Source of the DNA: a virus
Lineage: Duplodnaviria > Caudoviricetes
Reading direction: 5' to 3' (one strand)
Length of the DNA stretch: 64,000 nt
Virus record (IMG/VR): IMGVR_UViG_2974778606_000001
Location: 68,886-132,885 of that record
Of this stretch, positions 51,264 through 64,000 are shown one piece after another. Every line of letters starts with the position of its first letter. The first letter of the stretch is position 1. Both the position numbers and the translations under genes were made by a program. A model generated the notes under the pieces. It was not told where the DNA came from, made no database searches, and saw only the letters and a list, made by a program, of their open reading frames with translations.

Positions 51264-53873
51264 GTGGGAAGACCTTGGATATACGACTGAGGTCAATATA
51301 GAGATACCAGAGATTGATTGGGATGCATTCAGAGAGGCAATGAATAACCTCTCTGATTCCATTCGTGCAATTCGACCCCAGATGGAAGAACAAGTACGTC
51401 GTCTACGGTTGGAATTCAATGGAGTTCATTCAATACACTCTGAGTATCAGATAAGAAGAATCAGAGAGAGTGAATCAATGGCAGTAGACATTAGGCATGG
51501 AGAGTATCCATCCTGGGATAGTTATGGAACGTACTGGTATGACCCTTCTGGATTTCATTCTGATGAACCTCACGTATGTTTCATCTGTAGCAGACCAACT
51601 GGTCGCATCGATATCGATTTTCATGGAGCGTTCTGCAATTCAGAAGAGTGCAACGAAGTAATCAGGCAAGACCTGGAGAGGGCCAATGGAGGGCCAGAGA
51701 ATGAAGAGGTATAGAATTCATCTGAGTCTCAAGTCAGGTAAGCTGGTCTATTCAGACCCTATCGACATAGGAAAGATGGACCACGAAGAGGTCGTAAGCA
51801 CCCTTGAGAAAATGGTAGAAATCGTTGGCGATGGTGGATGTCTCAGTCTCTCGGTCAATGGCCAGACGAAGACGTACCTGAATCACTCCATAGAATCTAT
51901 CTGGTGGACTGACGGCAGTTGACAATTTCGTAATGTGTGCCTTAGCATGAAAACATTATGAGATATACAATTGTCAAAGAGCCTCTTAAACGAGGCCGGA
52001 CTGTAGAGGGCTACAACTGGGCCGTTACTGATACCAAAGTAAACAAGGTTGTAGTCCGATATGGTAATGAATTCAGAGCTGAGTTCATCAAGGACTCTTT
52101 CAATGAGGCAGGCGTAAGCAGCAGATTCGAATTTGAAGTAGCTGGCAATGAGACCTTTGAAGACCTCGATGAGTCAGCATTCAAAGGGGAATGAATGCTA
52201 GAGAAGTGGGCATGGTGGGTTCTGGCCCGGCGCATGGAGAAGCATCGTAAGGCCAAGAGACACCACCAAGCAGACCATATAAGAGCAGCGCTAGCCACAA
52301 GAGAGCAGAAACAGTGTTACTTGTGCTGCATCCTGGAAAACACAGATTGGCTAGCATGGGCAACAAGGTTCGACCCAACGTCCAACATGGACAAGGACAG
52401 TGAGCTATATGCAAGTGTTATTGAAGATGAATCCCGGTTTGGAGATGTGGTTCGGAGAAGTGGTCTGGACTGACGAATACTGGGATGACGATGAGGACTG
52501 GCCAGAAGATGGCTGCTTGGGAGTAGGCTATGCCTACTCCCCCTTTTCGTTTTTGCATAGCCTGATTTGGTTTCATGATTTTTTAGTCATGGAATTTTTA
52601 GTCAGATTTTTAGTCGGCAGAGCCGACTGCCAGCGCAGCGAAAACGCCCGGTAGCGAAGCGGCCTCATACCCCTATATACATTACCTCTTATCAACCCCT
52701 ATAGAAGGACACACCTACTATATACACAAAGGCGTTGAGGCATAGAGCATAGTGCACATCGTCTTGAATCGATGAATGTATGGGCTTGCTTGTAGGCTAT
52801 TGCTTGTCAACCAAAGTTGCAACTTATCCACAGATAAATCCATAGCCTGTGGATAGTAGGCTTTGCCTACAATAACTTTTGTGAATGCACACAATTCAGT
52901 TGTGCACAATATAATAGTGAGCTATGGGTGTGTAATTATGGGGGTATGTTCCGCGCCGGAACATAATGCTTCCCCCTCCCTATATAACCTAGCAGACACA
53001 TCTGACCCCGAATCCAAGCAAAATAAGCCTTCCAAGCATCGAAATCAGCCCTGAAAAATGGCTCAAAAATGGGAAAAATCACGATATTTTGCCCCGAAAT
53101 CGGACATTTCGCCCCTAAAATGGCCCAAAATCCCGCAATTTTGACAAGCATTCGTAAAGAGACCTGGACTCAAGGAAAATCAGCCCGCAATCCATCAAAT
53201 CTAACCATCATATCCCTGGAAATATAGGCATTCATCGTAAATGGGCCACCAATCCGAAGTCCAATCAGTCTGACAGACCTTAGACTCATCAGAATACCTC
53301 TGCGATTCATAGAAACAGACTTGAGATTCATTGTCAGAGTGTCGATTCTCCCTATATACACAAGCAATAGATGATATTGAAAAGCCCGGCAGTTTCAAGA
53401 GGTCTTCGTAAATGAACTAGATAGATACACACCTATTATAGGTCTATGTATATAGGGGAGAGGGACACCCATAGCTACCGGGCCTTGTTAAGAATCATGA
53501 ATCCAACATCGTTTATTGAGCATGTATATAGCAGCAGACAACACTAAAGCCACCCCGAAGGGTGGCTGTTTTTGCACTCAAAAATCTCTGTAAAAATCTC
53601 AAAACTCCTGGGAATTTGACCCCTGACTTAAAGGGCGAAATCCCTGGAAAATTTGAGGCCCATCGTAAATGGGGAAAAGTCGGACAACTCGGACAAATCG
53701 CTGTTGATATTGGCAGACATCGGGAAGTTAGTTAGAGTAGGTAACGAACCGGGGCGGTCTGAAATTGAAAGGTCCCCAGGGAGCGGCCGACCTTCCGCTA
53801 ATTAAGCCCTCGCCAGATTGACTGATAGGGCCCCTGGGGACACACTTTGAACTACTCTTCTATGTTAGCAAGG

Positions 53874-54125
53874 TCACTCTGCCTTGTCAAGGTTACGGAG
53901 AGTTTCTCCGAACAGACGCTCTACCTCCCAGTCTTCCAAGAGATAGGCAGTGTAGGTGGGAGAGGGTACAGGGATACTGACAGACCTTCCCCACTTCTTT
54001 GCCGGTTCGTTCCACACCTTACCAACGAAAGAGTTGGGAGTGATACCCACCACCTTGAAGTAGAAGCTACCAGAGGCAACAAGGTTACCCATGGACAGTT
54101 CGATGCTTTCCTTTACCGGCTTCAT
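53874..54125 (-). CDS. Hypothetical protein
   Basis: 83-aa ORF just after a TAGACT -10 box (leaderless). Confidence 0.6.
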   Translation of the reverse strand: MKPVKESIELSMGNLVASGSFYFKVVGITPNSFVGKVWNEPAKKWGRSVSIPVPSPTYTAYLLEDWEVERLFGETLRNLDKAE

Positions 54126-54222
54126 GAGTAGAGTCTATCAGTTCAAGGGTGGCCTGTCTACCCACCGGGCCGGGGCGGCCAAAATCCCCTAGGCCCGTAG
54201 GCCCAGGGGACTGGCTTGCTGC

Positions 54223-55245
54223 TTACGCAGCCTTGGCGAACTCCTGAACGGCCTTCAGGATTCGGTTCTTTTCGGTGTTGACCACCGGGTCGAAACCGGA
54301 AGCCGCAATGAACAGGTTGTCCACGTTGCCACCACGGGGCATCCGGTACCAGTCGATACGCTCGGTCAGAGCGTTCAGAGCACCGGCCGCAGTCCCCTGA
54401 AGAGACTGAGTGGTCTTCGGACCGTCGCCCGTGTCGGTGTAGATACCCATGGTCAGGTCACGCTTGGTCTCCCACTTGACCATGCTGCCCTTGACATCCT
54501 TCTCAGGCTTGGGGTACAGCGTGGCGAACAGCGTGTCGAACTGGTCCTTAGAGACCGGCACGTCAGCCAGACCCTGCATGACCCGCTCGAACTCATCCGC
54601 GTAGGCGAACGTGATGTTCAGAGCCTCACGAGCCGCAGCCATGCGACCCTCGATGGTCTGCGTGTGGCGCATCTTGAACTGCTGCTTCACACCGTTACGG
54701 AGTGCGAAGTTGAGCGTGTTCTGACACACGACACGAACCGGAGTGATGGACGCCTGAACGGCCACGGAGCCGTCGTGAGAGGTGTTGACCAGAAGATACA
54801 GCTTGGTCACGTCGTCGTCACCGATGACGATGTCACGAGAGATGGACAGAGAACCGAACACCACGCGACCGTCACGGATGCTGCCAGCCGTCTCCCACGT
54901 GCCACCGCCCGCGAGGATGCCGTCACCGAAGCTGAACAGCTCCTCGTTCTGAACGACCTTGTACCGCTCGCCCACGGTGGCCAGAACATCGTTCTGACCG
55001 GTGTTGAACGGGTTGTCACGGACGACCATGTAAGGCTCCGTGACGAAGTTGTACGAGTCGGAGAGCATGCCCACGATGTCCTTCACGGACTCCAGGCGGA
55101 CGTTCCAGCCCTTCAGGTGGGCCAGCGTCAGCATCTCGTCGGTGGTCAGCTCACCCTCGAACACGGTTCCGAGGTTGTGCCACGCGGGCTCCTGGCGAGA
55201 AGCGAACGCGACCTGACCCTTGGAACCAATCTCAAGACCGTGCAT
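54223..55245 (-). CDS. DUF932 / TIGR03299-like phage-plasmid protein
   Basis: AWH.LG, V..RY..VQN.E.F, ETAGS...G, NTSHDGS, TPVRVVCQNTL. Confidence 0.88.
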   Translation of the reverse strand: MHGLEIGSKGQVAFASRQEPAWHNLGTVFEGELTTDEMLTLAHLKGWNVRLESVKDIVGMLSDSYNFVTEPYMVVRDNPFNTGQNDVLATVGERYKVVQNEELFSFGDGILAGGGTWETAGSIRDGRVVFGSLSISRDIVIGDDDVTKLYLLVNTSHDGSVAVQASITPVRVVCQNTLNFALRNGVKQQFKMRHTQTIEGRMAAAREALNITFAYADEFERVMQGLADVPVSKDQFDTLFATLYPKPEKDVKGSMVKWETKRDLTMGIYTDTGDGPKTTQSLQGTAAGALNALTERIDWYRMPRGGNVDNLFIAASGFDPVVNTEKNRILKAVQEFAKAA

Positions 55246-55436
55246 GTTGTGCCTCCAAAGGCAGAGTTGGTTGGGGCAGGTACTTCCCGCCCTTCGATGT
55301 CTCTAGTCTAGCAGTAGTCTGGGGCCGATGTCTACCCACCTGGTGTGTCTGCAATGTCCGTTTTGCCCTTTATGTCCGGGCCGGGGCGGCCCAAAACACG
55401 AAAGCCCCTCCGAAGAGGGGCCACGTGCTGAGTCTC

Positions 55437-55925
55437 TTAGAACGGAGGCTCATCCGAGTAATTGGCCGGGAAAACGGACGGGCAGGGACCGTGCGGCTGC
55501 TCCAGAATCTCACGCTCCCAGTCGGCCAGACCGGCAGTCAGGTTCGTGACGTACACGTCCACGATGTCCTTCGACTCCTTGAGACCCAGACCTGTGGCGT
55601 TGCGCACGTCCTTGATGACCTGAATCTTGCGCTTGGTTCCGTGCTTCTGAACCGCGTCCCGCACGACTTCCGCAGCACGACGGAGCTGGAAGTTGTAGAC
55701 GCGCTCCATCTTCTGGAACTCCCACTGCTCGGGCGTGGGGATGGAGGTCAGGGACTTGCCCACCTCGTGACCGGACGTGTAACCCTCGTCGTAGCCGTTG
55801 CTGTGGGCCTCTCGCACACCGGCCGTGTGCAGTTCCATGATGTTGCGAGCGATGTGCATCGCCTCGTGCAAGGTCAGACCACCCGCACGCTCGGAAAGAA
55901 TGTCGAGGATGTCACCGAGGTGCAT
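55437..55925 (-). CDS. Protein with ribosomal L7/L12 C-terminal-like domain
   Basis: KIQVIKDVRNATGLGLKESKDIVD. Confidence 0.8.
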   Translation of the reverse strand: MHLGDILDILSERAGGLTLHEAMHIARNIMELHTAGVREAHSNGYDEGYTSGHEVGKSLTSIPTPEQWEFQKMERVYNFQLRRAAEVVRDAVQKHGTKRKIQVIKDVRNATGLGLKESKDIVDVYVTNLTAGLADWEREILEQPHGPCPSVFPANYSDEPPF

Positions 55926-56051
55926 GTCAGCTCCGTTTCTCAGGGAGTCCGTCTCCCTTTCGATGTCTCTATCTTAGCAGTATCAGGGGGATGAGTACAA
56001 CCCCTCATGCCGGGCCGGGGCGGCCCGAAGGCCCCCGAAGGGGCCAACGGA

Positions 56052-56498
56052 TTACCAGCGAACTCCCACACCGTTTCCGCTCAGGGACTCGATGATGGAC
56101 TTTGCGGCACGCAGGTCCATCGTGGGGTAGGTCTCACGCAGCTTCTTGATGCATCGAATCTTCCGCTCCAGGTCACGGTAGCTGAACTCGCCCTCGGCCC
56201 AGATGGAAGCCACGGCCACGAGCTTGGTGTGGTCGATTTCGGCGGTGAAGGTGTTCAGACGCTCACCGTGAGCCTTGCCCTGCTGGTATCCGTCCTCGAA
56301 AGCGGCCTCCACACGACGGTCCGCCTCCTTACGGGCCACGTCCCAGATGTTGTTCTCCACCTCGTTGAGGCGGTTCAGGTGGGCCTCGAAGATGATGCGA
56401 GCCACATCGAACGCCTTCTTGAGGCTCATCTTCACACCGTTCCCGTTGAAGATACGCAGGATACGGGCCTCGTCGAACTCAAACATGGTCGCCTCCAC
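56052..56498 (-). CDS. Paralog with divergent L7/L12 C-terminal-like domain
   Basis: KIRCIKKLRE....MDLRAAKSIIE; N-terminus similar to the neighbour. Confidence 0.65.
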   Translation of the reverse strand: MEATMFEFDEARILRIFNGNGVKMSLKKAFDVARIIFEAHLNRLNEVENNIWDVARKEADRRVEAAFEDGYQQGKAHGERLNTFTAEIDHTKLVAVASIWAEGEFSYRDLERKIRCIKKLRETYPTMDLRAAKSIIESLSGNGVGVRW

Positions 56499-57116
56499 TC
56501 TCTGGGGTATCTCCCCTTCGATGTACTAAGCTTAACAGGTCTAGCGGGCAGATACAAGCCCTTCAAAACAGGCCGGGGCGGCCCAACGGGCCCCGTGTCA
56601 AGGGGCCCGGCAGGTCAAGGGTTCGTGTGTCCCCTTTTCAGTAGGATTTGTTCGATGACGAATTTCGAATCCATCACTCGATTGTATTCGTCGTCTGAGC
56701 GGCTTTCCTTTCTGCCTGCCCATGCATTCAACAGGGAAATGATGAATTGGAACATCACCACCTGCACAGGCTCAGGATAGGTCGAAAGCAGATAGGCGAA
56801 TGCATGAGGGTCGAATGACCGCTTATCCATTTCGTCAATCAGCTTATTGGCCAGACGCTCATACGAGGTAGGCCGTGGTGTTACGAGTCGCGCACCCTCA
56901 TACATGTCAGGTGCGATGATGCTTACTCGTTTGAACGGACTACGCGTCACCCTCTCCCCCAAAATCCTTCGTTGTGCCGTATCCGTCTGAGACGCTGACA
57001 GACACCTCCAGGAACTTTGCCATGAACTCTGCCGTAGCAGTAGCAAAGGGCCAGGAGGTGTCGTGCGCGTCATCGTCCGGAATGTCCAGTTCGATGACGA
57101 TGTTCATGACTCTATC

Positions 57117-57635
57117 CTATCGGGTGTGAATCTCGACGTCCATCCCCAGCACCACCGGGGAGCCACAGGAGCAGTGCGACAGGCTGTAACCGCACTTGCA
57201 CGCCTCGCGCTCACTCAGAACGATTCGCTTGTTGCCGTACCAAGCGAAGTACTCAGTGCGAGACGAACGGGTCGGAGCAGCGTGCGGACGAACGTCCTTA
57301 CCGGTGACCTTGACCTTGACACCGGGCGCAGCCGGGGTCACTTCCGGGTTGTCCGCCTTGTAAGCGGCCAGCACCTCAGCGGACAGACGGCCACGCGCGT
57401 TGACCTGGAGTCCCTTGGACTTTGCCCACGCACGGACAGCCTTGGCATCGAACTGACCGGCCTTGGGAGCGGCCTTGACAGCAGCACGCTTGACAGGCGC
57501 GTCAGCGTCAGCGAAGACCATGCCATCGGCCTCAGCCTTGGCAATGGCTTCATAGGCAGCCTTGGACATGCGACCACGCGCATCCTTAGCGAGGTTCAGC
57601 GAAACGGCGTACGCGCGACGGGTCATGGCAGACAT
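57117..57635 (-). CDS. lsr2: Lsr2-like DNA-binding protein
   Basis: VRAWAKSKGLQVNARGRLSAEVLAAY; second RGR at the N-terminus; C-terminal CxC..CxC. Confidence 0.8.
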   Translation of the reverse strand: MSAMTRRAYAVSLNLAKDARGRMSKAAYEAIAKAEADGMVFADADAPVKRAAVKAAPKAGQFDAKAVRAWAKSKGLQVNARGRLSAEVLAAYKADNPEVTPAAPGVKVKVTGKDVRPHAAPTRSSRTEYFAWYGNKRIVLSEREACKCGYSLSHCSCGSPVVLGMDVEIHTR

Positions 57636-57665
57636 TTGGGGTTCCTCTCCCTCGGTGATGTCTCT

Positions 57666-57695
57666 AGTCTAAGGCATTGAAGGGGGTCGAGTCAA
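57666..57695 (-). promoter_or_regulatory. Cassette promoter (representative)
   Basis: Minus strand TTGACT-N18-TAGACT followed by an AGAGACATC leader; equivalents precede most genes at 54-62 kb. Confidence 0.75.
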
Positions 57696-57805
57696 CACGT
57701 CTAAATGTCCGTTTTGCCCGACTTGTCGGGCCGGGGCGGCCCCGAAGGCCCCTTCCTTAGAACTTAGGACACTGGACGTGATGACCGTTTTTCTGGTAGC
57801 AGGAA

Positions 57806-58555
57806 TCACACATTGTTGACCTTCTTTCTCCTAGGAACCTTAGAAGCGAATCGCACATCGGCCTTGCCAAAGATGCAAAGACCACACGTGAAGCATGCAC
57901 CACCCTTTTCGGTGATAAGGGGAATGCGCTTGGCATTCTCAGGGCAGATAGCGCCAGGCTTGCCAGTTTCAGCAAGCATGAATTCCTTGCCCTTGTCATG
58001 CGTTTCTGCCAAATAGGCCAGACGCACGCCCTTGTATGTGTTTTTGACGTACAGGGCAGCATCCTCATTCTCACTGTCTACACTCAGGTAAACAGCAAGG
58101 TTTGGGATTCCATTGATATACGACACGAACTCAAAGGAACGTGTGTAAATCCAGAATTGCACGTCAGGAAACATGTAAGCAATCTTGTTGATTGCCATTG
58201 CGTAGTCCGCAGAGAAGATGTCACCATCCGCGTGCCAGCGGAATACCTTGCTGATGTTGAACCTTGCGCATTCCTGAGAGAATTCCGCAATCATCTCTCG
58301 CAGCAGGTCCACCATTTCACTGAGAGATGCATCTTTCAGCAATTCCCAATTGTGCAGTGCGAGTTCACGGAATGCCGGATACATCTTTTCCAGCTTACCG
58401 GCATAGCAGACGCCCTCACACACGCCGGTCGCGCCAGGGCAGGAAAATGCCTTACCGCTGGGCAGAGAGAATGCATTTTTGAGAAGGGACTGAGTACCTG
58501 CCTTGTTGACACGCGCAGTCGTCTTACGGTCATGCGAGCGCTTGAGCTTAGACAT
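57806..58555 (-). CDS. Gp88-like (radical-SAM-related) phage protein
   Basis: FSLP....CPGA...C...CYA, FRWH..GD, FWIYTRS, C..CGLC. Confidence 0.75.
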   Translation of the reverse strand: MSKLKRSHDRKTTARVNKAGTQSLLKNAFSLPSGKAFSCPGATGVCEGVCYAGKLEKMYPAFRELALHNWELLKDASLSEMVDLLREMIAEFSQECARFNISKVFRWHADGDIFSADYAMAINKIAYMFPDVQFWIYTRSFEFVSYINGIPNLAVYLSVDSENEDAALYVKNTYKGVRLAYLAETHDKGKEFMLAETGKPGAICPENAKRIPLITEKGGACFTCGLCIFGKADVRFASKVPRRKKVNNV

Positions 58556-58661
58556 GGCGGTCCTTTCGTTGACGTAAGACGAGTCTAGCAGACATGGGGG
58601 ACGTAAACAAGCCTTTGAAATGTCCGATTTGTCTGACCGCCCCGGCCCGAAGGCCGCTCAG

Positions 58662-59006
58662 TCAGGCAGCGCTACGTTCCTCCGAACGGCTGTAGGGAAG
58701 TTCCGTGTTACGAACAATGGTGCTGAGAGAAACAGCGTTGATTGTCTTGTGTCCCAGCAGCCAAGCCATAACCACTCGATGCTGACCATTGTAGACAGTG
58801 CCATTCTGGAAATTGATAGGCATCTGAATACCATCACGCTCACAAGAGATGATGAAATCATCGCTCATCTCAAAGAACAGCCGAGTGAAAAGGTCCATCG
58901 TGCTCTCACCCTCCTCGCGGTCTGCGAAGTCGGCACGGGCAACGATTGCGTCTACACTCAGCGTCTTCATAGGGATGAGTCTAGCAGAGTACACAGTCAT
59001 GCGCAA
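58662..59006 (-). CDS. Small ParB/Srx-like protein
   Basis: GI..PI, VYNGQHRV..AWLLG. Confidence 0.6.
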   Translation of the reverse strand: MRMTVYSARLIPMKTLSVDAIVARADFADREEGESTMDLFTRLFFEMSDDFIISCERDGIQMPINFQNGTVYNGQHRVVMAWLLGHKTINAVSLSTIVRNTELPYSRSEERSAA

Positions 59007-59233
59007 GACCTCAATTATGTCCGTTTTGTCTGGCCGGGGCGGCCTAAATGACTAAGGGCCCCGAAGGGGCCCGGTGGTCAGACGAACAGAACAGGAAGGC
59101 AGAGGAACACGACCAGCACGACGAACAGGACCATCAGAAATTCTTCAAGGTCCATTACTCACACACCTCCCGGTACCAAGCGTAGTGCGTGTACAGATAG
59201 AAGTGAAGCCAAGTTGTGAAATACATGACGCTC

Positions 59234-59533
59234 CTAGAAGAGTTCCGGTCCCGATTCGCTGTCTTCCGTCCAGTCATCAGTATACTCGATGAACTCGACA
59301 TTGAGCAACCATGCAATCAAGACGCGGTGATGCCCGTTGAAGACAGTGTTGGATTCGGGAAGATAGATGATGGGGTCAAGGATGCCACGGGTACACGAGT
59401 CGATGAACTCAGGATTGCCGATGAACAGGTCATCGAACTTCTCTTCGAGCATCTGCATCGTGGTGTGGTCTTTGGCAACAGCATCATTGAAGATAGCCGA
59501 CTCAATCAGCTTCGCAACAGATACCTTTGCCAT
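59234..59533 (-). CDS. Small ParB/Srx-like protein
   Basis: GILDPI, VFNGHHRVLIAWLL. Confidence 0.6.
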   Translation of the reverse strand: MAKVSVAKLIESAIFNDAVAKDHTTMQMLEEKFDDLFIGNPEFIDSCTRGILDPIIYLPESNTVFNGHHRVLIAWLLNVEFIEYTDDWTEDSESGPELF

Positions 59534-59645
59534 GGCCCCTCCTTGGCTTGATAAGACTACTCTACACGACTACCGGGCCTGTTGTCTAGTGCTACAACAA
59601 AATGACCGGGGCGGCCCAAAGGGGCCCCGAAGGGCCCCGATTGAC

Positions 59646-59915
59646 TCAGTCGTCCAGTTCCTTGGACGAACGCAGCTCCGGACGCTTGAGCAGCGAGGGG
59701 TCAGCCATCTTGACCTTGCCCTTGGACCGACCGACCCGAACCATCGGGAAGTTCTTCAGAACGTCGTCCACGCGCCTGGCGTCGGCGTCGAAGATGTCGA
59801 ATCGCTGGTACGGAGCCTTGGTTGCGATGTCACCGAACTCCACATCGATGCCCTGCACGATGAGGGCGACCCGGAGGGAGAGGGACTGAGAGACGGGAAC
59901 GATACCGGCACGCAT
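59646..59915 (-). CDS. Hypothetical cassette protein
   Basis: AGGAG RBS; terminator hairpin after the stop. Confidence 0.65.
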   Translation of the reverse strand: MRAGIVPVSQSLSLRVALIVQGIDVEFGDIATKAPYQRFDIFDADARRVDDVLKNFPMVRVGRSKGKVKMADPSLLKRPELRSSKELDD

Positions 59916-60459
59916 GTGAACTCCTGAGAGTCGAAGTAAGCTGGGGTATTCAGTTATCAGAGACTTTGGCAGGAAGGGAAAAACCTCACGTTGCGAGGCC
60001 CTGTGGCCTGTCCCCTTGTGCTTAGCTAGAGTCTAGCAGGCTGACCTACTCGCAGTCAACCAGGTACTCGGGCTCGTCGTCCTCGGAGGTGGTCCACACG
60101 TCGGACAGCCAGCCCTTACGGTAGAGAACCGGACCCTCGGTAACCTCGTCCTCGTTACCGAACAGCATCGAGCGAAGGTCTTCCATAACACTCTCCTCTC
60201 TCGGGGAGGTTTCCCTCCCTTTCGATGTTCTAAGTCTACATGACGGATGCGACAGTGGCAAGCACCCATTTTGGGCCGGGGCGGCCCCGAAGGGCCTTTC
60301 GCTAGTCTCCCATGTCGTCCAAGTGGGCATCGGGCGCAGGCTCGAACTCAAGGAAGGTGTCTTCGAAAAGCACCATCCATGCGTAGCCCTCACGATTGTC
60401 CGGATTGCACTTGCCCGTGTGTATCTCACCCATGGGTGCACCGCAGTCCATGCACATTC

Positions 60460-60690
60460 TCAGACTCCGTTCCACGGCATGGCCACGAACATGTCCACGT
60501 TCTTCGTGTGAATGGCGATGCGGTTGCCGTTCTGGTCGGTGAGGTTGAACAGCAGCTCACCAGTGTCCACCGCGAGGTTCCATGCGGTGTTCATGCTGTC
60601 GGGAGTGGTGTCCTTGACCAGAATCTCGATGAACTTGTCACGCATGGCGTAGTAGACACGAACACGAACACCGAACATGATTGCCTCCAT
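60460..60690 (-). CDS. Hypothetical cassette protein
   Basis: Promoter and RBS upstream. Confidence 0.65.
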   Translation of the reverse strand: MEAIMFGVRVRVYYAMRDKFIEILVKDTTPDSMNTAWNLAVDTGELLFNLTDQNGNRIAIHTKNVDMFVAMPWNGV

Positions 60691-60797
60691 TCTCAGGGAG
60701 ATTTTCTCCCTTTCGATGACTCTAGTCTACATGACTGATGAGACTTGCACAAGTGGGCCGGGGCGGCCCAAAGGGCCCCCGAAGGGGCCCAGTGGGA

Positions 60798-61079
60798 TTA
60801 CTTCTTGACCTTGCGGCGGTTGCTGTGGTTGCCGTTCATCAGGGCCGTGAAGTCCAGCATGATGTTCTGCTTGAAGTTGGTCGCTCCGTGGAACTTGCCG
60901 TCCTGGTCACGGATGACGATGCGAACTTCGGTGTTGTCGCTGCCCGGAGTGGTCTTCCAGGTCTCCAGCCGGATGCTGTAGGTGGCCTTGGAGCCCTTGA
61001 CCTTGAAGCCCTCGGAGATGGCGACGGAGGAGACGATGTTCTTGAACTCGGTGTCGGTGTTCTTCGCCAGAGAGACCAT
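60798..61079 (-). CDS. Hypothetical cassette protein
   Basis: GAGGAG RBS; terminator and box downstream. Confidence 0.7.
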   Translation of the reverse strand: MVSLAKNTDTEFKNIVSSVAISEGFKVKGSKATYSIRLETWKTTPGSDNTEVRIVIRDQDGKFHGATNFKQNIMLDFTALMNGNHSNRRKVKK

Positions 61080-61224
61080 GAAAGCTCCTCAGAGTCTTAG
61101 CTTGGGGTTCCTTCCCCCTTGCTGATAGCTAAAGTCTACACGACCCAAGGGACATCGTGCAACCCATCTAGCTACCGGAATTTTGGGCCGGGGCGGCCAA
61201 AAGGCCCCCGAAGGGGCCAGTTGG

Positions 61225-61509
61225 TCAGCCGTTCTCCTTTTCCTCCTGAGCCCTGCGCAGGTACGAAAGGTCTTCCAGAGTGCGAGAGATGGCGTTCAGC
61301 GTCTCATACGCTTCGGCCTTGCTGAAACCGATGTACCCACGGTCACCCGTGCCAGGTGCAGCCGAACCGCCCTCTACGAACACACGGTGAGCAATGCCCA
61401 TGGAGGGCGTACCTTCCTGATAGGACAGCTCCAGCTCAATGCCCATGGCTTCCCAGTTGCGACGGTAACGCTCAAGAGCGGTGATGATGTCAGCCTTGGA
61501 AACGCGCAT
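61225..61509 (-). CDS. Hypothetical cassette protein
   Basis: Promoter and RBS upstream; terminator and box downstream. Confidence 0.7.
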   Translation of the reverse strand: MRVSKADIITALERYRRNWEAMGIELELSYQEGTPSMGIAHRVFVEGGSAAPGTGDRGYIGFSKAEAYETLNAISRTLEDLSYLRRAQEEKENG

Positions 61510-61608
61510 TTGGGGTTCCTTCCCTCTCGGTGTAAGTAGAGTCTAACACAGTCCAGGGGCTGAGTACAACACCCAATTTAGGCCGGGGCGGCCCCGAAGG
61601 GCCTCCCG

Positions 61609-61938
61609 TTACTTCAGCTTGGCCAGAAGAGAGCTGATTTCCTGCCGAAGCTCCGATTCCGGACGCAGGCCGCGCTCCTCCTTCATCATACGCTCGAAAT
61701 ACGCCTTCAGCTCCGTCTTGTTGTACGGACCGTACACGCCCTTGTCAGTGGTGTAATTGATTTTCTCGAAGGGCATCGGGCAGGAGCAACCAGAGTCGCT
61801 TGCCACGTAGTAACGTCCTCGCGCTTCCTTCCACACCTGAGTGATGTTGAACTGCCAGCTCTCCTGGTCCCAGTCGAACGAACCGATGTACTCCAGGGAG
61901 TCAAGCAGGACGAGCGGAGGCTTCGAAATGTCGGTCAT
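61609..61938 (-). CDS. Hypothetical cassette protein
   Basis: DSGCSCP.PFE motif. Confidence 0.7.
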   Translation of the reverse strand: MTDISKPPLVLLDSLEYIGSFDWDQESWQFNITQVWKEARGRYYVASDSGCSCPMPFEKINYTTDKGVYGPYNKTELKAYFERMMKEERGLRPESELRQEISSLLAKLK

Positions 61939-62049
61939 GGCGTTCCCCTCTCGGATTTCTTAGTCATAGTCTAGCAGGCCGATTTTTTAGTCGCAAGCCC
62001 AAACTCAAGATTTTTAGTCTGGGCCGGGGCGGCCCCGAAGGGCCGACCC

Positions 62050-62361
62050 TCACTCATAGGGTCGGTATTCGTCCCAATCCGCTCCCTCGTGGTTTTCGAA
62101 CTCGATACGAACCGTGTCGCCCAGACGGTGATTCACGCTCCAAATCTCTCGATTGGAGCCCTGGTAGCGCCTCTGAGCCTTGGCCCACTTGTAGGTCTTT
62201 TCAGCGCGCTTGCGGGAACGGTGCTGCCAGGATTCGACACAAACACCGTAGTTGAACCAGCGCCCGCCCTCTTCCGGACCACCATAGGCACGGTCGATGA
62301 AGTAGACGTTGACCCAGTGCTTGTTCCGACGACGCTGACCGGAACGAAGACGCTTAGCCAT
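62050..62361 (-). CDS. Hypothetical cassette protein
   Basis: GGAGG RBS; RAYGGPEEGG.W. Confidence 0.7.
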   Translation of the reverse strand: MAKRLRSGQRRRNKHWVNVYFIDRAYGGPEEGGRWFNYGVCVESWQHRSRKRAEKTYKWAKAQRRYQGSNREIWSVNHRLGDTVRIEFENHEGADWDEYRPYE

Positions 62362-62469
62362 TTGGCCTCCCTTGTTGATGACCTAAGTCTAACAGAAGCC
62401 TAGGACAGACACAACATGCTTGCCAGGATATGTAAGCATCGAACCGCCCCGGTCCAAAAAATTCAGCAT

Positions 62470-62533
62470 AAAATTCACCCCTGTTTTCAACAGGTTTTCC
62501 CTTAGAAATTCCTTGAAAACAGGGGTGAATTTT
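62470..62533. repeat. Perfect 21-bp inverted repeat with 22-nt spacer
   Basis: AAAATTCACCCCTGTTTTCAA ... TTGAAAACAGGGGTGAATTTT. Confidence 0.9.
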
Positions 62534-63077
62534 TTCTATGAAGTTTTTTCGAAGGTCAGAAGGGCACGATTTCGTTACTTCCATCGCCACAAAGGCAATG
62601 TTTCGAGTGTCGCGCCCCAACGGGGGTCATTCCACTTTCCCGAAACCGAACAATCATGTTCGGAAAGGAAGAAGTGGACATTACGCCCGATTCGGTCCGC
62701 AGACCGGCCCTCTCAAGAATCAGAGAGCCGGAATGCGTGAATCGAGGGGCTTTCTTCTTTCGAAGCATGTTTGCCCCTTTTTACATCAGACGAGTTCGGA
62801 CATGTGCGGGTAGGCGTCCCAGTCGAAGCCGTCCACACGGTCCGCATCCTGCACGTCCGAGGCAGGCAGTTCGATGGTGCTCAGAACGCCAGCGTCACGG
62901 GCCTGCTCAAGAAGGTCACGAAGGTCCATGGTGTGTACTTCCTCTCGCTTGGTGTAGTACCAGTCTAGCCCATGGGATGGGTAGATGCAAGCACGTAAAT
63001 CGTGGGAATTTTTTGAGGGCCTTCGTACACGCGCGGGGGAAATGTGGGGAATCTACGTAATGCCCCTTAAAAGAGGT

Positions 63078-63180
63078 CTATATGGGTATACCCCATATGG
63101 GTGATATGCACTATATGGGTAGGTATGCACCTATATGCCCTATATGTACCCATATGTACCAGTATGGGTAGGTATGTCCC
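63078..63180. repeat. Imperfect tandem array of (C/T)ATATG units
   Basis: TATATGGGTA, CATATGGGTG, TATATGGGTA, TATATGCC, TATATGTAC, CATATGTAC. Confidence 0.8.
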
Positions 63181-63348
63181 CAATGTCCGTTTTGTCCACC
63201 CCAGATTTGAGGGTGTCCGATTTGCCCCATATGTCGGGCCGCCTCGGTTCGTTACCAATCCTTTACCTAGAATCTTGCTGAATCTAGGGTTTAGCCCCTG
63301 TGGAGCGGGTACTATGTAGGCATAGCCACTACACACCAGGGAGACACG

Positions 63349-63813
63349 ATGAACGCCACCGCCACCGCCCCGGTCACCACGCACAACGCTGACAACCACC
63401 AGTGCCGAGCAGATGAGCGCACGGCCGGTAGCAAGTACCGTAGGCAGATGGTCGCTACCATCCTGTACCTTGCCTCCCTCACTGGCCACAGTGACGGTAA
63501 GACCTACGCTGTGTGTGTGGGTTGTGGTGAGAATGCCTACCTTGACCGTTCCCCCCGTGCTATGGACGCGTTCAACATGGGGCACGTGCAGAGTGACGCT
63601 ACGGGTGGCACGTACTGTGTGGCCAACATGCTTCCCCTTTGCCGACAGTGCAACGCTGACATGGGCAGTGACCACATGATGGACGTTCTCATTCCTCTTT
63701 ATGACAATCGGGACATGTGGGATGGCAAGCTGCTGCGTGACCCCGGCATGGTCAAGGAAGAGGCGCACGCGAACCGTGGCCGTGCCTCTTGGAAGCGCCC
63801 TGAGAGCGTCTGA
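63349..63813 (+). CDS. HNH-like protein
   Basis: CVGCG, GHV....GG....N..PLCRQCN. Confidence 0.65.
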   Translation: MNATATAPVTTHNADNHQCRADERTAGSKYRRQMVATILYLASLTGHSDGKTYAVCVGCGENAYLDRSPRAMDAFNMGHVQSDATGGTYCVANMLPLCRQCNADMGSDHMMDVLIPLYDNRDMWDGKLLRDPGMVKEEAHANRGRASWKRPESV

Positions 63814-64000
63814 GACGCTTTTCTCCCCTCCCTGGGAGTGGTGGCCCAGGGAGGGGAGATAGGCCCGGAGACGGGCGCACAGGGCTTTTGAAAGCCGTTT
63901 TCAAATGGCCTGCCCGGCATCGTGGAACCTTCCCCGGAGAGTTTGTCAAGGGGTATGGGCGCACTATCTGAATTGTTACAAAGGTATGCGGAGCATGTAT

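Follow-up and report, generated by a model that had tools for sequence, protein, structure and literature searches.

The window analysed here is a stretch of 64,000 nucleotides that forms the right 64 kb (positions 68886-132885) of a complete 132,885-bp phage genome, IMG/VR record IMGVR_UViG_2974778606_000001, and the element in question is a short GC-rich box that recurs at the junctions of a gene array in the terminal repeat of that genome. The phage is a Streptomyces siphovirus of cluster BE1. Its nearest matches on record, about 92% identical over the array region, are Anedea and Riptide, likewise BE1 phages of Streptomyces, and some 90 BE1 and BE2 phages are more distant matches, each found two times per record, once in each direct terminal repeat (DTR). 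Comparison of its two ends showed that the genome starts and finishes with the same 11,063 bases, and window 52938-64000 is the right copy of this exact DTR. The whole box array, spanning window 53747-63249, lies inside that copy and reads mainly on the minus strand, with about 14 promoter-bearing units and 21 small open reading frames (ORFs), one to three to a unit.

Terminal repeats of the BE family, at about 11 kb, are the longest among actinobacteriophages and resemble those of T5 and SPO1 in size; they hold 20-25 ORFs, an lsr2-like gene included (PMC5764925, PMC7650747). The phages themselves are described or predicted as virulent (PMC7650747, PMC10690885). In the literature searched, published notes on BE phages were limited to repeat length, the T5/SPO1 resemblance and ORF content, and no description of the box motif was found.

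A repeated box in the direct terminal repeat

The 11-nt core of the box, CCGGGGCGGCC, was found 12 times without mismatch in the window, always on the plus strand and within 54170-62034, while 100 shuffles yielded none. A search with one mismatch adds copies at 53749 (plus strand), 58635 (minus strand) and 63237 (minus strand), and a variant with two mismatches, GACCGGGGCGGTT, lies at 62442-62454, giving 12 exact cores and four variants per DTR. An earlier, sequence-only reading of this DNA had already counted 12 exact boxes plus variants. That count stands with two amendments, in that the copy placed at 62441 is really the two-mismatch variant at 62442-62454, and a 16th, plus-strand variant at 63237-63249 is to be added. 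The unit it had proposed also had to be redrawn: the functional unit is a 13-mer, GGCCGCCCCGGCC, which forms a 5+3+5 dyad (GGCCG-CCC-CGGCC) and is often 15 nt long, as GGGCCGCCCCGGCCC, through one extra pair. The confinement of the array to an exact DTR was likewise new to that reading. The copies are listed below; distances run from the end of the box to the -10 hexamer, and copies were identified by motif match, or by a 1-mismatch match where stated.

62442-62454, minus strand: box variant GACCGGGGCGGTT with a GGG centre, 50 nt from the -10 of the 103-aa gene unit; group B phages (defined below) have their own box type at the orthologous site
62022-62034, minus strand: box GGCCGCCCCGGCC overlapping the 3' arm of a cUUCGg hairpin, 48 nt from the -10
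61581-61593, minus strand: box overlapping a hairpin arm, 35 nt from the -10
61186-61198, minus strand: box 4 nt (TTTT) past a hairpin, 47 nt from the -10
60756-60768, minus strand: box 4 nt past a hairpin, 26 nt from the -10; upstream crossover partner of a 482-bp indel
60274-60286, minus strand: box 35 nt from the -10; downstream crossover partner of the 482-bp indel
59604-59616, minus strand: box GGCCGCCCCGGTC, 39 nt from TAGAGT; similarity to Anedea and Riptide stops at its 3' edge
59032-59044, minus strand: box 11 nt past a hairpin, 48 nt from the -10 of a leaderless unit
58635-58647, minus strand: box variant GGCCGGGGCGGTC (1-mismatch match), centre flipped relative to the Anedea/Riptide ortholog, 47 nt from the -10
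57729-57741, minus strand: box overlapping a hairpin arm, 57 nt from the -10 of the Lsr2 operon
56571-56583, minus strand: box 36 nt from TAAGCT
56013-56025, minus strand: box 36 nt from TAAGAT
55379-55391, minus strand: box 12 nt past a hairpin, 68 nt from the -10 of the DUF932 gene
54168-54180, minus strand: box after a long hairpin and TTTT, 30 nt from the -10 of a leaderless unit
53747-53759, minus strand: terminal box variant GACCGCCCCGGTT (1-mismatch match) past the last hairpin, with no promoter recognised downstream
63237-63249, plus strand: box variant GGCCGCCTCGGTT (1-mismatch match), 112 nt before the start codon of an HNH endonuclease gene, with no preceding hairpin

Two promoters of the array, both identified by reading the sequence, have no box:

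62961-62966, minus strand: -10 hexamer TAGACT of the array's first unit, whose promoter has neither hairpin nor box upstream
60030-60059, minus strand: internal promoter TTGACT-18-TAGACT within the 3' end of the preceding ORF, lacking both hairpin and box

Counting the motif and its strand bias across the genome, a check the sequence-only reading had itself named, gave 24 exact copies, 12 per DTR, on one strand only, and none in the unique 110 kb. A search of that unique region also found no GNCCG-N3-CGGNC dyad and no CCGCCCCGG. Pairwise identity among the copies is 94% inside the 13-mer, as against 29-48% in the 13-30 nt of flank on each side, where the terminator hairpins and spacers lie. 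Some 20 cUUCGg terminators in the unique region are all boxless, and so are the unique-region junctions in which a hairpin is followed by GGGGTTGACAC-17-TAGAGT (TTGACA-17-TAGAGT promoters). The terminators rule out the box as a generic terminator part, and these promoters, together with the two boxless DTR promoters, rule it out as a generic promoter element. Because neither the terminators nor the promoters of the unique region carry it, two DTR promoters lack it, and no such dyad occurs in the unique region, the box is best seen as the mark of the terminal-repeat units as a class.

Junctions, promoters and spacing

Read on the minus strand, 13 junctions keep the order that the sequence-only reading had described, namely stop codon, GC hairpin (mostly with a cUUCGg loop), box, spacer, -35 element, 17-18 nt, TAGACT, leader and gene, with promoters of the form TTGnnn-17/18-TAGACT. 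GC hairpins are present at 14 of 14 minus-strand junctions; their U-tracts are short (3-4 U), and a generic terminator scan accepts few of them. The gap from hairpin to box is 0-12 nt, often TTTG or TTTT, and in four cases a hairpin arm overlaps the box. In RNAfold predictions the box forms a separate hairpin at most junctions.

The -10 consensus of the principal sigma factor of Streptomyces is TAGAPuT, and the array promoters are, by their hexamers, of the host sigma-HrdB type. In two units the ATG lies 7 nt (58968-58983) and 6 nt (54123-54137) past TAGACT, and the mRNAs of both are probably leaderless; since this is the actinobacterial leaderless geometry, it lends the -10 assignments independent support. 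An N4-type hairpin promoter, with its 5-bp stem and 3-nt loop, was considered and dropped, as the box is followed, at distances that vary, by ordinary -35/-10 promoters, two of which produce leaderless starts.

The conserved leader of the earlier reading was recovered as the word CATCGAA[AG]GG, which occurs five times per DTR and nowhere else. Six leaders start with ATCGAA(A)GGG or ATCAGCAAGGGGG, folded in a GGGAG...CTCCC-type hairpin near the RNA 5' end; they lie at 60690-60725, 60186-60232, 56486-56528, 55925-55970, 55245-55304 and 61079-61132, with a second Shine-Dalgarno-like GGAG following the hairpin. These leader hairpins might stabilise the 5' end or play a part in translation.

Four units also have the word CGGACAT, often in the form AAAACGGACAT, between box and -35, and it recurs in the head region; its minus-strand positions are 55354, 55372, 57705, 58620, 59017 and 63183. 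It corresponds to the outer half (CGGACA) of the group B box. Across the window it is not enriched (10 found against 6.6 expected), and six of the 10 are in the DTR on the minus strand.

Codon usage sets the array apart as well. The mean GC content at third codon positions (GC3) is 0.73 (0.57-0.94) in array ORFs versus 0.51 (0.40-0.64) in 38 long ORFs of the unique region, and overall GC is 55-60% in the array (53874-62361 compared) versus 48% in the rest of the genome. The phage has dozens of tRNA genes for its low-GC codons, and host-like codons would therefore suit translation before the phage tRNAs exist. The high GC3 fits genes translated ahead of the phage tRNA set, or genes acquired from high-GC sources. 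Together, the host-type promoters, leaderless starts and GC3 suggest early timing and would place the array, on sequence criteria, in a pre-early or host-takeover class. The presence of an Lsr2-like protein and an L7/L12-like domain in the cargo is a further, indirect sign of such a class. The modular early or host-takeover array of the sequence-only reading would fit these features, along with the long DTR and a small cargo that varies among relatives.

The distance from box to -10 is not arbitrary. Thirteen values (26, 30, 35, 35, 36, 36, 39, 47, 47, 48, 48, 57 and 68 nt) give a peak at a 10.5-bp period in a Rayleigh test (R = 0.70, analytic p ~0.001), and the probability is 0.003 against random distances with a period scan of 9.5-11.5. 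Among 160 distinct spacers from 17 phages, copies from orthologous modules that are not independent of one another, the distances cluster at 24-30, 35-39, 44-52, 55-60 and 68-70, no value falls between these classes, and the peak is again at 10.5 bp. Box centres would fall near -45, -55, -66, -76 and -87 from the start site, a pattern that would match a factor held on one helix face relative to RNA polymerase.

Orientation follows the genes. The C-rich centre is on the sense strand in 11 of 13 array boxes, or in 12 of 15 minus-strand boxes with the 53747-53759 variant counted, and in the plus-strand box of the HNH gene. Every lineage has a plus-strand box of its own type 110-121 nt before the HNH start, in HNH sense orientation. 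At 58635-58647 the centre of the orthologous box is flipped relative to Anedea and Riptide, with the flanks conserved. It is correct, as had been remarked, that the outermost boxes of this phage point in opposite directions; a special meaning for this was dropped, given that other lineages carry either orientation there and that centres flip in place.

These observations bear on one role proposed by the sequence-only reading, in which the box would be a polar motif that loads or guides an FtsK/TraB-like translocase, or a direction signal of the Chi/KOPS type. Some 90% of copies do share one orientation. However, a signal of genome direction is disfavoured because orientation is set by the local unit, with the plus-strand copy standing before the plus-strand HNH gene, and because centres flip in place between relatives that are about 92% identical. 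Moreover, copies confined to two direct repeats would point inward at one end of the genome and outward at the other, and the sites lie strictly at unit boundaries. This role is not supported and is extremely unlikely.

Lineage versions of the box and its candidate partner

The repeats of 16 other BE phages were compared (17 DTRs with that of this phage). All 16 have a box at the same junctions, in a lineage-specific sequence, and in all of them a lineage-type box also occupies the terminal position, about 750-800 bp from the left end of the DTR. The box types are as follows.

Group A (this phage, Anedea, Riptide): GGCCGCCCCGGCC
Group B (Angela, MulchMansion, Daubenski, Mildred21, NootNoot, Jay2Jay): GTCCG-SSS-CGGAC
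Watermoore: a looser GTCSGGSYCSGACA
Group C (Karimac-like BE2 phages): RRCCGCCCCGGYY
Tomas: GACCGGCCCGGTC
Coruscant: GGCGCCCGGCGCC

In each genome tested, its own pattern was found only in the two DTRs, at 12-15 copies per DTR, and control patterns gave none. That each BE lineage has its own, DTR-confined version of the box is a new finding. An inner core, CCG-NNN-CGG, is common to four of five lineages. Phages from the same isolation hosts differ in box version, which favours a phage-encoded partner. Sequence-specific recognition is also argued for by the constancy of the box within a genome, while the terminator hairpins, for which only structure matters, vary freely.

The arms of the dyad covary. 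Among 133 distinct sense-oriented copies, positions 2 and 12 are G:C in 45, A:T in 21 and T:A in 23, and on the sense strand G:T (21) exceeds A:C (4). In the Watermoore lineage positions 4 and 10 never pair; the stem is lost and the box retained. Such pairing raises the possibility that the box is a small hairpin of RNA or single-stranded DNA (5-6 bp stem, CCC loop) that serves as part of the early terminators, or as a 3'-end or processing signal in read-through transcripts. Consistent with this are the excess of G:T over A:C, as RNA pairing predicts, the separate hairpin predicted by RNAfold at most junctions, and the position of the box 0-12 nt past a hairpin with a short U-tract (3-4 U) at 14 of 14 minus-strand junctions. 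Yet terminators outside the DTR manage without it, its structure-only neighbours vary in sequence whereas it does not, and the Watermoore boxes persist without their stem. The plus-strand HNH box has no terminator before it, and spacing from a promoter would be irrelevant at the RNA level. On balance this explanation is very unlikely.

The plus-strand box draws attention to the gene behind it:

63349-63813, plus strand: HNH endonuclease gene at the head of the array, 154 aa, CxxC...H...N...CxxCN (PF01844, PF14279, phrog_7426)

An HNH gene is found in the DTR of 87 of 87 matching BE-type phage records. The protein of this phage is 97% identical to those of Anedea and Riptide, 58-65% identical to those of BE1 group B and 70-74% to those of BE2 group C. 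Of seven other DTR proteins, six (DUF932, Lsr2, the 103-aa and 111-aa ORFs, and p47 and p70, the two ORFs beside HNH) resemble their group B counterparts more, the seventh, GP88, not being discriminating. With a fixed CCC centre and a pyrimidine at position 12, the box of this phage lies inside the group C family, the boxes of group B having A at position 12 and a variable centre. In Watermoore, an HNH protein of 69-76% identity and deviant boxes occur on a backbone of mostly 83-99% (GP88 68-75%). On these two or three discordances the HNH phylogeny appears to conflict with the backbone and to track box type, which would make the HNH protein the leading candidate for the partner of the box, though not an established one. 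Comparison of its sequence with solved structures gave no match.

Two further features were noted around this gene. In groups A and C a box-like CACCGCCCCGGTC lies inside the HNH coding sequence, 8-23 nt past the start (window 63349-63400), and group B is without it. BE2 and some BE1 phages carry extra plus-strand boxes just after the gene, 470-720 nt past its start, which reach about 60 bp beyond the repeat end of this phage and leave the HNH gene bracketed by boxes.

One way to account for this association is that the box is the recognition site of the HNH protein acting as a nuclease rather than a regulator, whose nicks or cuts would fall at the head of every unit and serve DTR processing, concatemer formation or recombination. 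HNH type tracks box type against the backbone phylogeny, the gene is a core DTR gene in all the matching records, and boxes stand just before it and, in groups A and C, within its first codons as well. A dyad-like site with a fixed asymmetric centre is what would be expected of a strand-specific enzyme, a crossover has been located in the box, and T5-like phages with similar DTRs carry strand-specific nicks (PMC10644984). Set against this, helical-turn spacing from promoters would be pointless for a nuclease site, and a packaging nuclease would be expected to work at the ends of the DTR, where no boxes occur. Cutting both strands at 15 places in each repeat would destroy the phage's own DNA, and the covariation of enzyme and site comes from few events. 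A nuclease site as the main role of the box is unlikely.

A more elaborate proposal is that the box and the DTR HNH protein form a cognate pair, in which a nick in one strand at the head of each early unit would leave packaged DNA with T5-like strand-specific interruptions, the nicks insulating or timing the units and making their junctions recombinogenic. This is decidedly unlikely. If true, it would mean a nuclease-driven exchange of cassettes, with site and enzyme co-evolving in a private version per phage lineage.

The reading that is preferred, tentatively and at somewhat less than an even chance, is that the box is a class-specific protein-binding site that would control the pre-early array, with the HNH protein as leading candidate partner, and would act secondarily as a recombination hotspot. 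Host RNA polymerase would transcribe the pre-early array before the phage tRNAs become available. A sequence-specific protein encoded by the phage, for which the HNH endonuclease of the same repeat is the leading candidate, would bind the box and make the whole DTR array one regulon, sitting on one helix face upstream of each promoter, at the five positions given above, and right at the end of the preceding unit. Coordination would most plausibly be by shut-off or insulation of pre-early units, and activation is possible. An operator of this kind would account for the class specificity, conservation, lineage versions, helical spacing and orientation of the box, without specifying the sign of regulation or the partner. 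Of the three roles offered by the sequence-only reading, the putative shared operator is the best supported, by DTR restriction, lineage-specific sequence, helical-turn spacing and orientation.

Several points weigh against this operator. Simple steric repression is unlikely, since the box lies upstream of the core promoter and not over it. The association of the box with hairpins is at least as close as that with promoters, given the two boxless promoters (62961-62966 and 60030-60059) and the promoterless terminal box. The spacing classes may be partly inherited from a few ancestral module types. The case for a phage-encoded partner is weakened in that a host factor could bind the box through the shared CCG-N3-CGG core, and the link between HNH and box rests on few events. 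HNH genes are often mobile, and the position of this one near the genome end would suit a packaging role, as for HNH proteins of the HK97 type. Finally, the satellites MulchRoom (helper MulchMansion) and MiniFlayer (helper MindFlayer) carry no copy of their helpers' box type, and satellite cross-talk through the box was rejected for that reason.

Cassette turnover, cargo and parallels

Six larger differences separate the array from those of Anedea and Riptide. In the first, a 482-bp cassette holding a promoter, two ORFs and a hairpin is absent from both relatives, and its length equals the box-to-box spacing. The relatives match the upstream junction up to the box and the downstream junction from the box on, with the switch inside the shared GGGCCGCCCCGGCCCA, which is the sole identity between the two junctions there. 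In the second, a ParB-like cassette is replaced from the 3' edge of the box at 59604-59616 to the stop codon and hairpin. In the third and fourth, two ORFs are swapped for unrelated ones from start codon to hairpin, with box and promoter kept. The fifth is a 278-bp gene inserted in Riptide between an ORF and its hairpin, and the sixth a 58-bp indel adjoining a hairpin. Across the 17 phages, units have been tandemly duplicated, lost and moved.

In such indels, replacements and movements the junctions as a whole serve as portable homology, like the early promoter plus stem-loop elements (PeSLs) of T4-type phages. As the longest identity common to all junctions, the box acts as a crossover point for deletion, duplication and exchange of whole cassettes. 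Among the breakpoints mapped, it is one crossover point and the best documented, but not the exclusive one, as most breakpoints lie at the hairpin or start codon. The sequence-only reading had predicted gene gain and loss with breakpoints at the box; this stood for the crossover in the box and, at its edge, for one replacement, and it failed for the exchanges that break at the hairpin or start codon. The recombination site that it had inferred is therefore borne out by a single event, and the genome encodes no recombinase to act on it: searches of the complete genome for tyrosine and serine recombinases (PF00589, PF00239) gave no match, control genomes being positive. Integron-like site-specific recombination was rejected on this account.

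It is conceivable that the array consists of PeSL-like regulatory cassettes and nothing more, such that the box has no trans-acting partner, is kept uniform by unequal crossing-over and mainly drives shuffling. The crossover of the 482-bp indel inside the box speaks for this, as do the tandem paralog pairs and the gain, loss and relocation of units in the 17 phages. The flipped centre at 58635-58647 is of a kind that quasi-palindromes tend to show, no recombinase is needed and none is encoded, and such cassettes are documented in T4-type phages (PMC2839356). However, most mapped breakpoints lie outside the box, and gene conversion would hardly homogenise a 13-bp island with flanks of 29-48% identity. 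The 10.5-bp spacing, the promoterless terminal box and the box before the opposed HNH gene are also left unexplained. As a full account, shuffling without a partner is unlikely, although less so than the other rivals of the operator.

The genes carried by the array are the following.

62786-62929, minus strand: ORF of 47 aa (phrog_7139)
62556-62768, minus strand: ORF of 70 aa (phrog_7190)
62050-62361, minus strand: ORF of 103 aa, basic (phrog_7302)
61609-61938, minus strand: ORF of 109 aa, DUF7574 by family match; an unrelated ORF stands in its place in Anedea and Riptide
61225-61509, minus strand: ORF of 94 aa; by comparison, an unrelated ORF stands in its place in Anedea and Riptide
60798-61079, minus strand: ORF of 93 aa, GC3 0.94 (phrog_7442)
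60302-60690, minus strand: two ORFs of 76 and 51 aa, the 482-bp cassette absent from Anedea and Riptide (phrog_6054, phrog_7276)
60046-60186, minus strand: ORF of 46 aa (phrog_8237)
59646-59915, minus strand: ORF of 89 aa (phrog_7391)
59234-59533, minus strand: ParB-N-like paralog 1, 99 aa (phrog_4635; relatives annotated 'ParB-like nuclease domain')
58662-58970, minus strand: ParB-N-like paralog 2, 102 aa, leaderless, ATG 7 nt past TAGACT (phrog_4635)
57806-58555, minus strand: GP88-family protein, 249 aa (PF17338, E 2.7e-61)
57117-57635, minus strand: Lsr2-like DNA-binding protein, 172 aa (PF23359, phrog_6269)
56615-57107, minus strand: two ORFs of the Lsr2 operon, 55 and 111 aa (phrog_7273, phrog_7210)
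56052-56486, minus strand: phrog_5819 paralog, 144 aa
55437-55925, minus strand: phrog_5819 paralog, 162 aa, with a stretch like the C-terminal domain of ribosomal L7/L12 (PF00542, E 6e-10)
54223-55245, minus strand: DUF932 protein, 340 aa (PF06067, E 1.7e-48)
53874-54125, minus strand: the array's last ORF, 83 aa, leaderless, ATG 6 nt past TAGACT; no Pfam or PHROG family match

All but the last match a Pfam or PHROG family, which argues that these small ORFs are genuine genes. The two adjacent paralog pairs recognised by the sequence-only reading are the phrog_5819 and phrog_4635 pairs. The L7/L12-like stretch is found only in the 162-aa protein, its 144-aa neighbour having no such match; the C-terminal domain of L7/L12 contacts translation GTPases. 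Searches of Pfam and PHROG found no DNA-binding domain among the small proteins of the array besides Lsr2.

Both margins of the repeat are rich in other repeats. The first 800 bp of the DTR (52938-53740) are non-coding and hold a 34-nt repeat in three copies (53212, 53640 and 53697), a cUUCGg hairpin that is bidirectional (53548-53567), and several more direct and inverted repeats. The T5 repeat has a comparable untranslated stretch rich in repeats, and here the elements may serve packaging or recognition of the genome end. At the other margin, 63075-63176 is an iteron-like cluster of about eight copies of CTATATGGGTA or TACCCATAT, in both orientations, between the array's first promoter and the divergent HNH gene.

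Several known systems offer parallels to the putative operator array. PeSLs (Arbiol et al. 2010, PMC2839356) likewise pair a repeated intergenic host-type early promoter with a terminator-like stem-loop, likewise occupy a plastic region of small genes of unknown function, and recombine between modules in a way that explains insertions, deletions and replacements between close relatives. They have no separate conserved box, the stem-loop varies in position within and around the promoter, and an AT-rich tract lies upstream (PMC2839356). Here, in another phage group and host, a discrete 13-bp GC dyad (94% conserved) stands between hairpin and promoter, lineage-specific, DTR-confined and placed at helical steps.

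The stoperators of Cluster A mycobacteriophages (L5, Bxb1; PMC6550527, PMC9283540) are sites of 13-14 bp in short intergenic gaps, at 20-30 per genome compared with 15-16 per DTR here. Their consensus varies by lineage together with the cognate protein (PMC6550527). Like most boxes of the array, whose C-rich centre is on the sense strand, they are oriented with transcription. Stoperators are without dyad symmetry, occur genome-wide and bind the immunity repressor of a temperate phage, whereas the BE box is a dyad found only in the terminal repeat of phages described or predicted as virulent, in a genome without an integrase. The Streptomyces phage phiC31 is reported to have conserved inverted repeats, many operators in intergenic gaps of its early region (work attributed to Ingham et al. 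in 1994 and Smith et al. in 1999); these are said to be about 17 bp long, of different sequence, bound by a temperate-phage repressor and not confined to a terminal repeat.

The first-step-transfer region of T5 and the host-takeover module of SPO1 resemble the array in that small genes with host-type promoters and terminators of their own fill a DTR of 10-13 kb, and the left repeat of T5 also has an HNH endonuclease gene and repeat-rich non-coding stretches. The SPO1 module has 12 early promoters and 24 genes, with TF1 binding sites at early promoters. For neither phage has a box shared by every junction been described; the BE cargo is unrelated (Lsr2-like, DUF932, GP88, ParB-N-like). By analogy, its architecture would be closest to PeSLs and the T5/SPO1 early arrays, while a multi-copy, oriented, lineage-specific site would work most like the Cluster A stoperators.

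Cluster BE comprises more than 85 sequenced genomes of strictly lytic Streptomyces phages whose biology is almost untouched, and the box, one short lineage-specific word on the early units, provides an experimental handle on the organisation and timing of their first genes. If it is an operator, it would define a new early regulon and possibly supply orthogonal, portable parts (insulator, promoter and leader) for Streptomyces engineering. If it is instead the target of the HNH protein, the turnover of cassettes in an accessory-gene array would be tied to a nuclease, and the long-unexplained nicks of T5-type genomes might become clearer. Whichever holds, the array illustrates cleanly, in a natural setting, the unit-by-unit exchange of anti-host gene sets.

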